Source of the DNA: an uncultured Bacilli bacterium
GTDB taxonomy: Bacteria; Bacillota_I; Bacilli_A; RF39; UBA660
Assembly (NCBI GenBank): GCA_947632325.1
Contig: CANROU010000004.1
Coordinates: 16,307-80,306 of the forward strand
Reading direction: 5' to 3'
Length of the DNA stretch: 64,000 bases
The position numbers were made by a program, and so were the translations under genes. Below the pieces are notes generated by a model. It was not told the origin of the DNA. It searched no databases and saw only the letters and a program-made list of their open reading frames with translations. This document shows positions 22,263 to 31,861 of this stretch, piece after piece (the stretch's first letter is position 1; every line of letters starts with the position of its first letter).

Positions 22263-22287
22263 AAGAAACAAAATTGTTTCTTTTTTA
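22261..22287. terminator. Bidirectional terminator between pheT and sspI
   Basis: Hairpin AAGAAAC/GTTTCTT flanked by an A-run and a T-run. Confidence 0.65.
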
Positions 22288-22530
22288 TTTATTATCCTTA
22301 TTATCAATGGTGGTCATATTTACTCTCTTTTTAATAATATCTAATATTTTCTGTTTCATATCCTCATCAGCATCCTGCCAAATAATTTCCATAAATACTC
22401 CCATCCCTGGTAGGGTTTCTTCATCTTGTTCACTAACACTAATATCAATAGCGCTTTTTAAGGCTTCATAATCATCTCCCTTAAAATTATTAATTATATG
22501 ACTTCTAATATCAATATCCATATCGATCAT
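22285..22530 (-). CDS. sspI: Small acid-soluble spore protein SspI
   Basis: TLPGMGVFMEIIWQDADEDMKQKIL closely parallels B. subtilis SspI (MLPGLGVLFEVIWQHASE...). It lies next to pheT, as in Bacillus. Confidence 0.8.
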   Translation of the reverse strand: MIDMDIDIRSHIINNFKGDDYEALKSAIDISVSEQDEETLPGMGVFMEIIWQDADEDMKQKILDIIKKRVNMTTIDNKDNK

Positions 22531-23837: not shown

Positions 23838-23866
23838 TTGCAAAATTTATCAACATAGGGTATAAT
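23838..23866 (+). promoter_or_regulatory. Sigma-A promoter of the yceD-rpmF operon
   Basis: TTGCAA, 17-nt spacer, TATAAT. Confidence 0.65.
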
Positions 23867-23886: not shown

Positions 23887-24357
23887 ATGATAATAGATTT
23901 AAGTTCTTTACATAGTAATATAGTAAAAGAAATACCTCTTGATTTTACTATTTCTTTTACCAAAGATATTTTAGCTAATACTGATATAGTTAGACTAGAT
24001 AATATTAAAGTAGAAGGTAATATTACTCGTAATGCTTCAATGGAGGATATTATATCATGCTCAGTAACAGGTGAAATGTTTTTGCAAGATTCTATATCAT
24101 TAGAAGAAGTCGCTTATCCTCTGGCGTTAAAAATAGATGATATTTTAACAGAAAATGTCAAAAAAGATGAAAATACTCTTGATATTATGGAGTTTTTATG
24201 GGAAAATATTATCTTAGAGATTCCCTTAAAATTTACTAAGGTAGAGGATCTCAGTAAATTTCACGGGGATGGTTGGAAAGTCATTAGTGAAGAAGAACTA
24301 AACAAAAATAATAATCCGTTTAGTGAATTAGTAAATGAAACAGAGAGGAGTGATTAA
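23887..24357 (+). CDS. YceD/DUF177 family protein (YlbN-like, large-subunit rRNA accumulation protein)
   Basis: Acidic ~155-aa protein directly upstream of rpmF, which is conserved synteny. The ATG at 23887 lies 6 nt after GAGGTG. Confidence 0.8.
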
Positions 24358-24358
24358 A

Positions 24359-24568
24359 ATGTTAAAATTAGATATTCAATTATTTGCTGTGCCATTTCAT
24401 AGAGTAAGTAAAACCCGCAAAAGATTAAGACGAAGTCACAATGCATTAGAAACCCCTGGTACTACTAGATGTCCTAATTGCAATGAAATAATTAAACCTC
24501 ATCGCGTATGCTCAAAATGTGGTTTCTATAAAGGAAAAGAAGTAGTAGAGTCAAAAAGTGCTGAATAA
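24359..24568 (+). CDS. rpmF: 50S ribosomal protein L32 with a 9-residue N-terminal extension (MLKLDIQLF) before the canonical [10 protein letters not shown]-terminus
   Basis: [18 protein letters not shown] and the CPNC...CSKC zinc ribbon are canonical L32. The only in-frame start with an RBS (GAGAGGAG, 8 nt) is the ATG at 24359, which adds MLKLDIQLF. Confidence 0.9.
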
Positions 24569-24655: not shown

Positions 24656-27082
24656 ATGGAACTATTATCACAGTTAAAAGATAATTTATTAATTATAGTA
24701 CCTTCAAAAGTAAAAGAAGATCTTCTTCATACGTTAAGTACTATGAAGCAACACTATATATTAAAAATCATGACCTTTGAAGAATTAAAAAAAGAATTTT
24801 ATTTTCAATATGATATAGATTGTTATGCTTACTTAATGCAAAAATACCATTATAAGATGGATGTATGTGAAGTATTTTTAAAAAATATGTATTATATTGA
24901 AGATAAAAAATATAACTCTATTACCTTAACAAAATTAAAGCAATTAAAAGATGAATTGCATGAGCAACATTTATTAATAACCAATGATTACTTTCCTAAC
25001 TATTTAAAACAAGTTGATGTTTTAGTATATGGCTTAGATGTTACTAACAAATTTATAGATTATACTATTAAAAAAATAGAAAATATAACTAATGTTCACA
25101 TCATAAATGAAACATTAACCCCTAAAAAAGATATAGCTGTCTATGAATTTCCTACTATTAGTGAAGAAGTAGAATTTGTGGCTATTTCAATTTTAAATTT
25201 AGTAGATAAAAACATACCTTGGTCAAACATCAAATTAACTAACGTTACTGAAGAATATTATGATGATTTACAACGCATCTTTACTTATTATAATATACCA
25301 CTATGTTTACCTAATAATACTTCCATTTATAGTTGCCTTTATGTTAAAAAATTTCTTGAATATTTTGATCAAACCAAGGATCTATCTCAAGCTATCACAT
25401 ACATTTATGATTGTTACCCCTTAGAAGAAAAATTATATGATATTATTTTAGATATTGCTAACAAGATAAACCAAGCTACAGATAATTATCTTTTACAAAG
25501 AGAAATATTAGTTAATTTATGTCAAAAAAAACCAATGTGGTCAAATGAATATATAGAGCAAGTAGAAATTATTGATATTAACAATTGTTATTTAACTGAT
25601 AATGAATATTTATTTGTCTTAGGAACCAATCAAAATAGTTTTCCTAAAATTTATAAAGACGAAGGATATATTAGTGATAAAGATGCTACAGAATGCCTAA
25701 TGGATACCACTATTAATAAAAATGAGCAAGCTAAACAAGCAGCTATTAAATTAATTTATCGTAGTAAAAATATTGTTTTAACCTATAAATTAGCAACTCC
25801 TTTTGACGAGTATTATCCATCATTTTTACTTAATTCATTAACCACCAAAATTATTTCTTCTCCATCATTACCTAATAGACTATCTTATTCTAATTTAGCC
25901 AATAAATTAACCTTAGCAAGAGCATTAGATAATTTACATAATAATGGTATAAAAGATTCTAATTTAACTTTATTAACTAATACATATCCTAATTTACCAT
26001 ATCTTAGTTATCGCCATCAATTTACTGACTTAACTTTAGAGCAAATAAATACATATAAGAATAATTTAACCTTATCTTATACTAGTATTAATACCTATCA
26101 ATTATGTGCTTTTCGCTATTACTTACAATATATTTTACAATTAAACCCTTTTACAGATACTTTTATAACCTTTATTGGGCGATTATATCATGATATTTTA
26201 TCTAAATGTTATAATCCTGAATTTAACTTTGATAAAGCTTTTAATGAATATTTAGAAAACAGAATACTCTCCAATAAAGAAAAATTACTATTGATTAAAA
26301 TTAAAGATGAATTAAAAGCAACGATCAATATTTTACGACATCAATTAAATTATACTAAATTTACTAAAGGTTTATATGAGCAAAAATTAACTATGGACAT
26401 ATATAAAGATCCTAAAGTACAATTAACGGGAACTATTGATAAAATATTATTAAATAATAATCAAGCTATTATTATTGATTATAAAACAGGTGCTGTAGAA
26501 GTTAAATTAGAAAGATTAATTCATGGATTGAATATGCAATTACCACTATATTTGTATTTATTAAAAAACAACAATATCATTGATAATATTACTCCAGTTG
26601 GCTTCTATTATCAAAAGGTTTTAAATAATACACCATATAAGCAACCTCATAAATCATTATTAGAAATTAAAGCCGAACAATTAAAGTGGCTTGGTTATAG
26701 TATTGATAAAGAAGAAATTTTACAGGAAATTGATAGTAGCTATCAAAATAGTCAATTAATAAAGGGCCTTAAATTAACAACTAAAGGATTTTATGCTTAT
26801 TCCAAAATATTATCATCTTCTCAAATTGATAAAGTATTAGAACTAACCAAAGCCAAAATTTATAACTGCACAGATAATATAATAGATGGTAAATTTATGA
26901 TTAATCCTAAAAAAATTAATAATGTCAATATCAGTTGTACTTATTGTCCATTTGGCGATGTTTGCCATCATAATATTGATGATATAGTAGAATTGACTGA
27001 GCATAATACATTAGATTTTTTAAATAGTGGAGGTGAAAATAAACATGATGAAATGGACACCCGAACAACTTTTAGCCATTAA
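24656..27082 (+). CDS. addB: Helicase-nuclease complex subunit B (AddB/RexB)
   Basis: C-terminal PD-(D/E)XK nuclease motif (IIDYKTG). Four cysteines fit an AddB Fe-S cluster (one Cys in QLCAFRYY plus CTYCPFGDVC). No Walker A is visible at the N-terminus. It is followed by addA. Confidence 0.85.
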   Translation: MELLSQLKDNLLIIVPSKVKEDLLHTLSTMKQHYILKIMTFEELKKEFYFQYDIDCYAYLMQKYHYKMDVCEVFLKNMYYIEDKKYNSITLTKLKQLKDELHEQHLLITNDYFPNYLKQVDVLVYGLDVTNKFIDYTIKKIENITNVHIINETLTPKKDIAVYEFPTISEEVEFVAISILNLVDKNIPWSNIKLTNVTEEYYDDLQRIFTYYNIPLCLPNNTSIYSCLYVKKFLEYFDQTKDLSQAITYIYDCYPLEEKLYDIILDIANKINQATDNYLLQREILVNLCQKKPMWSNEYIEQVEIIDINNCYLTDNEYLFVLGTNQNSFPKIYKDEGYISDKDATECLMDTTINKNEQAKQAAIKLIYRSKNIVLTYKLATPFDEYYPSFLLNSLTTKIISSPSLPNRLSYSNLANKLTLARALDNLHNNGIKDSNLTLLTNTYPNLPYLSYRHQFTDLTLEQINTYKNNLTLSYTSINTYQLCAFRYYLQYILQLNPFTDTFITFIGRLYHDILSKCYNPEFNFDKAFNEYLENRILSNKEKLLLIKIKDELKATINILRHQLNYTKFTKGLYEQKLTMDIYKDPKVQLTGTIDKILLNNNQAIIIDYKTGAVEVKLERLIHGLNMQLPLYLYLLKNNNIIDNITPVGFYYQKVLNNTPYKQPHKSLLEIKAEQLKWLGYSIDKEEILQEIDSSYQNSQLIKGLKLTTKGFYAYSKILSSSQIDKVLELTKAKIYNCTDNIIDGKFMINPKKINNVNISCTYCPFGDVCHHNIDDIVELTEHNTLDFLNSGGENKHDEMDTRTTFSH

Positions 27083-30241: not shown

Positions 30242-31861
30242 ATGGATCCTATTTATATAATTGGTCATAAAAAGCCAGATACTGATGCTGTGGTGTCAGC
30301 TATAGCTTTAGCATATTTAAAACAACAACTTAATATCAATTGTGAAGCTCGTATATTAGGAAATATTAATACTGAAACAAAATTTGTTTTAAATTATTTT
30401 AAAGTGCCTGAACCACGATATTTAAATGATGTAAAATTACAAATAAAAGATATTAATTATTATAAAGGTTACTATTTAAAAATTACTGATAGCCTTTATG
30501 ATGCTTATCAATATATGCTTAAAAAAGAAATTACTGGTTTACCTTTAGTTAAAGATAATCAGCAATTCTGTGGCTTAATTACTATTAAAAATATTTTAAG
30601 TGAGATTATGAGAGATAATAATACGATTGTCACTTCACTAGCTAATTTACAAAAAGTACTACAAGCCAAAAACATTACAACCACAAAAAAAGATATTTTA
30701 GCTAATAAGTTATTGCTAGAAGTTAGTTTATCTAATATTTCACCAGATTGTATTAAAGAAAAAGATCAAATGATCATTATTGATAAATATAACACCACTA
30801 ATATTGAAACTTGGCCAAAGAAAACTAAGGTTATCTTATTTACTTCTAACCAAAAAATCACTGATGAAATCAAAAATTATGCTGCCAAAAATAATATTTA
30901 TCTGTTAAAGACGCCATATAGTTTAGATAAAGTAATAAAACTACTACCTATGGTTAATAATCTAGAAATATTATTAAAAAAAGCTCGAATGATTAAACTT
31001 GATCAAACGGATTATGTGGATGATTTTATCGAATGTATAAATAGATATCATCATACTAATTATCCTGTATTAAATAAAAATAATGAGTGTTTAGGTTTAC
31101 TTCGTAATATTAATATTAACGATAAAATTCCTAAAAAAGTTATCTTGGTTGATCATAATGATCAAAAACAAAGTGTTGATGGTATTTTAGAAGCGGAAAT
31201 AGTAGAGGTAATTGATCATCATAATATCGGTAATCTAACCACACCATATCCTATGAATTTTCGTAACATGTTGGTTGGTAGTACATCTACCATTATTTAT
31301 CAATTATTTATGGAAAATAATATTAGCATACCATATAAAATAGCTGGCTTATTATTATCAGGTATCCTATCAGATACTTTAATACTAAAATCACCAACAA
31401 CCACCAATCAAGATAGGGAAGCTAGTTTAAATTTAGCTAAAATAGTCAATTTAGATATTAATAATTATGGTTTAAAGATGTTAAAAGCCGGAAGTTCTAT
31501 TAAGAATAAAACTATTGAACAAATTATTTATAATGATTTTAAAATCTTTACTATTAATAATAAAACTATTGCTATTGGACAAATATTTACTATGAATCAT
31601 AAAGAAATATTATCCCGTATTAATGAATATATTACGTCATTAAACCAAATCGCTATTAGTAACAATTACTATTTTGTAGCGCTCTTTGTTACAGATATTA
31701 TAAAAAATGGTTCCTACATATTATATAGTGATAAAGCTTTAGATATATTACAACAAAGTTTTTCTCTTTCTAAAATACATGAAGGATATTATTTAGATAA
31801 TATCATATCACGCAAAAAACAAATTATTCCTCCTTTGATGAATGTTATGGATCGAAGATAA
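30242..31861 (+). CDS. ppaC: CBS-domain-containing family II (Mn-dependent) inorganic pyrophosphatase
   Basis: DHH N-terminus IIGHKKPDTDAVVSAIALAYLK, then VDHND and DHHNIG motifs, an internal CBS-pair insert and a DHHA2 C-terminus. Length is about 540 aa. Confidence 0.85.
   Translation: MDPIYIIGHKKPDTDAVVSAIALAYLKQQLNINCEARILGNINTETKFVLNYFKVPEPRYLNDVKLQIKDINYYKGYYLKITDSLYDAYQYMLKKEITGLPLVKDNQQFCGLITIKNILSEIMRDNNTIVTSLANLQKVLQAKNITTTKKDILANKLLLEVSLSNISPDCIKEKDQMIIIDKYNTTNIETWPKKTKVILFTSNQKITDEIKNYAAKNNIYLLKTPYSLDKVIKLLPMVNNLEILLKKARMIKLDQTDYVDDFIECINRYHHTNYPVLNKNNECLGLLRNININDKIPKKVILVDHNDQKQSVDGILEAEIVEVIDHHNIGNLTTPYPMNFRNMLVGSTSTIIYQLFMENNISIPYKIAGLLLSGILSDTLILKSPTTTNQDREASLNLAKIVNLDINNYGLKMLKAGSSIKNKTIEQIIYNDFKIFTINNKTIAIGQIFTMNHKEILSRINEYITSLNQIAISNNYYFVALFVTDIIKNGSYILYSDKALDILQQSFSLSKIHEGYYLDNIISRKKQIIPPLMNVMDRR

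Follow-up and report, generated by a model that had tools for sequence, protein, structure and literature searches.

The stretch of DNA analysed here (64,000 nucleotides from an uncultured Bacilli bacterium, 27% GC, henceforth the window) carries a yceD-rpmF gene pair followed by addB and addA, with a gene for a HIGH-nucleotidyltransferase lying divergently upstream. The pair is read from the forward strand and is preceded by a promoter-like site (TTGCAA-17-TATAAT, forward strand, 23838-23866), which agrees with the consensus at 10 of 12 positions in a consensus scan and, as a consensus match only, is putative. The yceD gene (forward strand, 23887-24357) codes for a DUF177 protein (large-subunit rRNA accumulation protein) that scores just above the family threshold (PF02620, 33.7 bits; cut-off 33.2). 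The same 156-residue gene is also called on the ENA contigs L001, L003 and L004, and the open reading frame in our listing begins at GTG 23878. yceD is the canonical upstream partner of rpmF, and its stop codon is placed between the Shine-Dalgarno sequence and the start codon of the latter gene. That Shine-Dalgarno sequence, GAGAGGAG, can be read directly at 24343-24350 of the forward strand and, after a gap of 8 nucleotides, is followed by ATG 24359 of rpmF, the start that the initial annotation had regarded as the only one with ribosome-binding-site support. An in-frame ATG at 24335 sits inside yceD and has no Shine-Dalgarno sequence. Further downstream, the addA reading frame, if begun at its first GTG, shares 56 nucleotides with the end of addB (27027-27082), and the true addA start is probably located further downstream than the listed GTG.

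The rpmF coding sequence (forward strand, 24359-24568; 69 codons and a TAA stop at 24566-24568) specifies a full-length pre-L32 of 69 residues that opens MLKLDIQLF'AVPFHRVSK, where the apostrophe here and below marks the known or proposed site of cleavage. An identical L32 with the same start is called on ENA contigs, all of them short (up to 5.7 kb). The first nine codons (forward strand, 24359-24385) encode the propeptide MLKLDIQLF, corresponding to positions P9 to P1 of a proposed site for the cysteine protease Prp, with the putative scissile bond between Phe9 and Ala10 (TTT'GCT; forward strand, 24383-24388); the segment 24359-24388 covers exactly M1 to A10. The predicted mature bL32 (AVPFHRVSK...SAE, 60 residues; forward strand, 24386-24565) contains a zinc ribbon formed by C38, C41, C51 and C54 (CxxC...CxxC; forward strand, 24470-24520), whose columns are invariant in the alignment of relatives. 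This four-cysteine ribbon marks the rpmF product as a standard zinc-type L32.

The assignment to the bL32 family rests on the combination of a whole-length model match, the four-cysteine zinc ribbon and the yceD-rpmF pair, with yceD directly 5' of rpmF in the window as well as in those related loci for which gene tables were examined. The Pfam model Ribosomal_L32p (PF01783) matches with 86.1 bits (cut-off 21.3), with residues 10-64 corresponding to model positions 1-55 of 56, and the bL32 chains of Bacillus subtilis and Staphylococcus aureus are matched with E-values of 1e-17. The propeptide lies outside the family model, and in every Firmicute bL32 chain with a solved structure (from B. subtilis, S. 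aureus, Listeria and Enterococcus) the equivalent of Ala10 is residue 2. As the model starts at Ala10 and the solved chains have residue 2 there, MLKLDIQLF constitutes a set of extra residues that ends where an ordinary L32 begins; in other words, the extension stops exactly at the mature N-terminus of the untagged homologues. The earlier suggestion that cleavage between Phe and Ala would leave the canonical L32 N-terminus thus agrees with both lines of evidence.

Tags of this kind are known from another ribosomal protein of the large subunit. In Firmicutes, Fusobacteria, Synergistetes and some Tenericutes and Thermotogae, Prp (YsxB, MEROPS C108) cleaves the propeptide off pre-L27 (bL27), and the published recognition motif is MLxx(D/N)LQ(F/L)F'A. 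The L27 tags to which the initial annotation had compared the L32 extension, namely MLKLNLQFF'ASKK of S. aureus and MLRLDLQFF'ASKK of B. subtilis, are correctly given, as they are reported in this form in a review of Prp. The window sequence KLDIQLF'A agrees with the Prp-type motif (K/R)L(D/N)(L/I)Q x F'A and closely resembles the L27 tag of its own clade, L(N/D)IQLF'A, so that the postulated motif match holds. A back-translated form of K-L-(D/N)-I-Q-L-F-A is found once in the 64-kb window and in none of 100 shuffled versions; the match is not a matter of chance. When about 975 kb of related DNA was searched in six frames with the pattern L[DNE][LIV]Q[LFMY]F[AGS], only L32, L27 and a single non-coding site were recovered.

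A homologue search yielded 282 L32 relatives, and counting the tag in the best 120 clusters (90% identity) showed that M(L/M)xL(D/N)IQ(L/M)F directly precedes AVP in 109 of these nearest L32 clusters. When one genome of each GTDB species was scanned, at least 593 loci were found to encode an L32 relative, and every one of the best 80, which were examined, has the tag. The sources of these 80 loci are uncultured gut MAGs labelled Bacilli, Tenericutes, Mycoplasmatota or Erysipelotrichaceae, including Candidatus Onthousia faecipullorum. The comparison of orthologues proposed in the initial annotation shows the extension to be widespread among the nearest L32 relatives. At 50% identity there are 13 tagged representatives, some of them on more distant types of L32. 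The full HMMER scan of 1.84 billion representatives from which these come recovered the tag on several such more distant L32s (P0245, P0246 and the RRTHYKI-type P0242 and P0292), alongside untagged siblings of such types (P0252, P0361 and P0249), and this pairing of tagged distant types with untagged siblings points to repeated gain or loss of the L32 tag. One further representative, P0248, reads ...MKLNITLFG'ALPFRRVSK, a degenerate version of the tag in which Gln is replaced by Thr and Ala by Gly-Ala; it may represent a decaying or altered site.

Untagged versions also occur among close relatives, with up to 91% identity to tagged L32s in the mature part. A neighbour-joining tree built from the mature region (58 residues) was used only to show this closeness of tagged and untagged proteins; counting gains and losses on it was dropped, as so short a region is too poorly resolved for the purpose. 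A direct comparison is provided by two loci, one tagged (L093) and one untagged (L104), which have in common the gene order lexA-polA-fpg-pyk-NTase-yceD-rpmF-spoIIGA-sigE. In the untagged locus rpmF starts as GGAGTGATAAC-ATG-GCA-GTA-CCA, and the alignment of L104:9955-10033 with L093 and with window positions 24314-24418 displays an exact, in-frame indel of 8 codons. On this comparative evidence the tag is dispensable for mature L32 itself. The untagged locus, at 39% GC, retains the Shine-Dalgarno sequence, the layout of the yceD stop and the gene order of its tagged relatives with 27% GC.

Two alternatives, each of which would deprive the nine residues of a role as a peptide, can be weighed against the nucleotide sequences of 71 distinct related loci. 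Under one, the start has been misassigned, with initiation at the Val11 GTG or at an ATG at P2 and the "tag" being an untranslated leader; under the other, the 27 nucleotides are conserved for a reason at the RNA level, such as translational coupling to yceD or an mRNA structure controlling rpmF. The former could appeal to the GTG codon for Val11 in the window and to the ATG at the P2 codon in 42 of the 71 loci. However, the Val11 codon is GTT in 50 loci and GTA in 20, the window being the single instance of GTG, and P2 is encoded by TTA, TTG or CTA in the other 29, the window among them. Moreover, neither Val11 nor P2 is preceded by a Shine-Dalgarno sequence, whereas a strong one, (A/G)GGAG(T)GA, equivalent to that of the window, stands before the extended ATG in all 71 loci, and either downstream start would yield a non-canonical L32 N-terminus. 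The GTG following Ala, named in the initial annotation as a possible alternative start, is accordingly disfavoured. Since the residue preceding Ala is always Phe (TTT in 50 loci, TTC in 21), there is also no start codon at the canonical Met-Ala position. As to an RNA-level function, coupling is plausible given that the yceD stop falls between the rpmF Shine-Dalgarno sequence and start, but the third codon positions are free to vary while the peptide is retained: Asp is encoded by GAT and GAC in 28 loci each, Lys by AAA in 35 and AAG in 25, and several codons are used for Leu and Ile. At the protein level, there is little or no change at Leu (P6), Gln (P3), Phe (P1) and Ala (P1'), in contrast to the drift of the positions and codons around them. 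Further, the untagged L104 locus has the same Shine-Dalgarno and stop layout without the 24 nucleotides, and the same peptide recurs in mRNAs of unrelated context, namely those of L27 and of phage proteins. In light of the Shine-Dalgarno, codon and synonymous-change data we reject both downstream initiation and RNA-level conservation, each of which we hold to be very improbable; this pattern of variation indicates that the tag is a genuine part of the protein rather than an artefact of annotation.

If the tag is indeed a Prp site, its carriers should be considered together with Prp and L27 of the same lineage. The initial annotation had suggested looking up rplU-prp-rpmA and the L27 N-terminus elsewhere in the genome. 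In the 64-kb window itself this cluster was not found by motif scan and tblastn, and as it lies outside the window the presence of Prp in the source genome is assumed from relatives; among the relatives, in contrast, the look-up was successful. In each of the six clade species looked up, rplU and rpmA flank a gene for Prp (PF04327, confirmed by Pfam), whose alignment to S. aureus Prp (4peo, 7kld) shows GH...DIVC at the catalytic His22 and Cys34, by which the clade enzyme is predicted to be catalytically intact. In one species, represented by five samples (L085-L089) and with an L32 75% identical to that of the window, yceD-rpmF(tagged)-addB-addA-rplU-prp-rpmA-obg is found on a single contig, and a second species (L096) has the same gene order from yceD and tagged rpmF to obg, again on one contig. 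On a GTDB MAG contig (L016), rplU and the beginning of prp follow a tagged rpmF at a distance of 5.7 kb, and the locus ends after the first 50 residues of Prp. The arrangement of rpmF-addB-addA followed by rplU-prp-rpmA extends over L085:10001-16642, L096:3621-10291, L016:6001-12207 and L056:6004-12207, and in those relatives both proposed substrates and the protease lie within about 6.5 kb on one strand. The window instead has a gene for a DHH-CBS-DHHA2 protein (30242-31861) after addA.

The L27 proteins of the clade are of the long type, with ...L(N/D)IQLF'AHHKG in 118 of 120 relatives. Their mature N-terminus (P0121-P0240) reads AHHKGQGS, as against the usual ASKKG or AHKKG, and their tags are mostly of 9 or 11 residues (range 9-13), the tag length following the length classes of the L27 protein. 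On the contigs that contain both genes the two tags can be compared directly. The L085 pair consists of MMKLNIQLF'AVPF on L32 and MNFMKLNIQLF'AHHK on L27, and the L096 pair of MMELDIQLF'AVPD on L32 and MKLLELNIQLF'AHHK on L27, both with an uncommon Glu at P7. With two same-contig pairs, this covariation of the L27 and L32 tags within genomes is suggestive only; at other L27 (P0137, P0160, P0184, P0150) and L32 (P0038, P0006) loci the partner gene lies more than 10 kb away or off the contig. Nucleotide similarity between the 5' ends of rpmF and rpmA was also considered as a sign that the tag had been copied from rpmA and was rejected as uninformative, because at 26-28% GC identical peptides force near-identical codons.

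Every element of the initial interpretation that was open to computational testing was borne out. Taking these observations together, we propose that the nine-residue tag of L32 is removed by Prp and that L32 is a second ribosomal substrate of this enzyme, a reading that we consider likely, with both the cleavage and the identity of the enzyme deduced from sequence comparisons. An 8-codon insertion right after the start codon would have created the tag MLKLDIQLF, thereby reproducing the recognition sequence of the C108 family given above. Prp, which normally trims pre-L27, would then most likely also cut pre-L32 between Phe9 and Ala10, and the product would be a mature bL32 with an N-terminus (AVPF...) identical to that of ordinary bL32 after removal of methionine. 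The cleavage would take place before or during incorporation of bL32 into the 50S precursor beside uL22, and uncleaved bL32 would not be competent for assembly, which would explain the strict retention of the cleavage motif. bL32 is known to join 50S precursors together with uL22, before the binding of uL2 and the docking of domain IV. Given this order of entry, and the need for trimming of the mitochondrial counterpart MrpL32 (see below), it is plausible that an unprocessed N-terminus would block incorporation. The tag could act either as an assembly checkpoint or means of coordination with L27, or as a ratchet that merely "must stay cleavable". Certain points count against cleavage by Prp: the prime side of L32 is A-V-P-F, with Pro at P3', as compared to A-H-H-K in L27; P2 of L32 is often Met (in the 42 loci noted above), while L27 has Leu or Phe at this position; and Prp can be species-specific, the Clostridioides difficile enzyme having failed to cut an S. 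aureus L27 peptide. The carriers of the tag are uncultured MAGs, and in the literature searched we found no proteolysis or proteomics data on cleavage of L32 at F'A.

These same features bear on two further alternatives that accept the tag as a peptide. The tag could be removed by a protease other than Prp, such as an alternate L27-processing enzyme or a general aminopeptidase or endopeptidase. An alternate bL27-processing protease (Rrp), less precise than Prp, has in fact been reported in Streptococcus pneumoniae TIGR4, and the V-P-F that follows Ala in L32 departs from L27. Yet what is retained is the full P8-P1' Prp motif and not merely a removable peptide; within the same genomes the L27 tag agrees with that of L32; and Prp is present in each of the six clade species examined, all of which make a different protease quite improbable. 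A marginally greater, albeit still low, probability attaches to the possibility that the nine residues are kept as a lineage-specific extension of mature bL32, with the resemblance to the L27 tag being historical (copied) rather than functional. Ribosomal proteins do gain lineage-specific extensions, as in chloroplasts, and it is from sequence that removal of the tag is concluded. However, a retained extension need not preserve a protease site, whereas the residues at P6, P3, P1 and P1' are nearly invariant across the 71 loci; close relatives do without the tag while their mature protein is otherwise about 90% identical; and an extended bL32 is not assembly-competent in mitochondria. Even when pooled with the two possibilities considered earlier, these alternatives remain unlikely as a set.

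The proposed pre-L32 resembles pre-L27 in several respects: both are small 50S proteins with a short N-terminal tag (8-15 residues in L27) bearing the motif (K/R)L(D/N)(L/I)Q(F/L)F'A, and the cut site of either is immediately followed by the Ala with which the mature protein of untagged species begins. In the relatives studied here the L27 and L32 tags are almost the same peptide. In contrast to pre-L27, the carrier is bL32, an unrelated zinc-ribbon protein located by uL22, bL17 and bL20, away from the peptidyl-transferase center, and its prime side has V-P-F in place of S/H-K/H-K, besides the frequent Met at P2. The phyletic distributions also differ: the L27 tag occurs in some members of several phyla, whereas the L32 tag is confined to a single group of uncultured gut Bacilli, where close relatives have gained or lost it.

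A different kind of parallel is offered by the mitochondrial bL32 (MrpL32), whose N-terminal region the m-AAA protease has to cut off before ribosomes can assemble. Like the proposed pre-L32, it is an N-terminally extended precursor of the same ribosomal protein family, and its trimming gates assembly. However, the enzyme is an unrelated ATP-dependent AAA metalloprotease, the yeast presequence is about 71 residues long, the cut is set by the folded zinc domain rather than by a sequence motif, and the origin of the system is independent. The window L32, with its 9-residue tag, sequence-specific motif and canonical N-terminus, lacks the hallmarks of an m-AAA-type precursor, and the likeness to MrpL32 is one of functional analogy only. 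Because the N-terminal region of MrpL32 must be removed by m-AAA, a non-homologous precedent for proteolytic gating of L32 does exist. Thus, the remark in the initial annotation that no assembly-checkpoint role was known for L32 has to be qualified by this mitochondrial case.

Prp sites on proteins other than L27 are known from phages. In phage 80alpha, the scaffolding protein (...NLQFF'ADQS) and the capsid protein (...NLQHF'ASNN) are Prp substrates alongside host L27 (...NLQFF'ASKK), the residues after Ala being variable, and the motif is known on further non-homologous phage proteins. In these phage structural proteins, as in the L32 proposed here, a portable tag makes non-homologous proteins substrates of the host Prp. 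The phage substrates, however, exploit a host enzyme, with cleavage not being essential for viability, whereas here the tag is on a second core ribosomal protein. A scan for tags of the clade type recovered 14 open reading frames of several lengths on viral contigs (IMG/VR contigs L106-L119) that begin M.K(L/F)(D/N)IQ(L/F)F'A. One of these, at L106:12252 on a contig with 27% GC, opens MMKLDIQLF'AGTSS and so has the second commonest L32 tag. The occurrence of the same tag on varied viral open reading frames marks it as a module independent of the carrier protein, and judging from these sequences phage use of the Prp tag appears to be widespread well beyond staphylococcal phages. The contigs concerned (L106-L119) span 27% to 63% GC.

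No paper describing L32 as a Prp substrate was found in the literature searched, and a 2022 review of Prp names L32 only as an exit-tunnel protein. Hence, what is probably new here, going by the comparative evidence, is that, in a large lineage of uncultured bacteria, a known propeptide-Prp system also takes in a second ribosomal protein. Prp, which has been pursued as a narrow-spectrum antibiotic target, has so far been treated as a cellular enzyme with one substrate, pre-L27, on which phage proteins hitch-hike. A second, unrelated ribosomal protein with an independently acquired tag would imply that the tag can move between proteins of the cell and that selection maintains it there. It would also provide a comparative handle on the function of the tag, in the form of closely related tagged and untagged proteins and of two substrates in one cell. 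The parallel between MrpL32 and m-AAA suggests that bL32 may be a recurrent point of proteolytic control in large-subunit assembly. On a practical level, genome-based predictions of the mass of mature bL32 in this large group of gut bacteria would be off by that of the tag.

More speculatively, the Prp tag might be a general, transferable "licence" for large assemblies, with one protease gating two 50S proteins, bL32 and bL27; we regard this as possible but doubtful. Were it so, Prp would be a hub coordinating large-subunit assembly at different stages, one being the joining of bL32 with uL22 around the folding of domain IV and the other involving bL27 at the peptidyl-transferase center, and the L32 tag, having come and gone repeatedly, would provide a natural experiment on the purpose of the propeptide.

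The window and its relatives also offer a view of the biology of the lineage. The reverse strand of the window encodes the small acid-soluble spore protein I, sspI (PF14098), at 22285-22530, and in relatives spoIIGA-sigE follows right after rpmF (L093:10288-11765; L104:10468-11785). The relatives additionally encode a PBP, MraY and MurG. By virtue of these genes, the gut MAGs with 27% GC that are labelled "Tenericutes" look like spore formers with peptidoglycan genes. For orders of the RF39 type, both spore formation and peptidoglycan have been predicted, and the sporulation and peptidoglycan genes seen here would fit with RF39-like orders.
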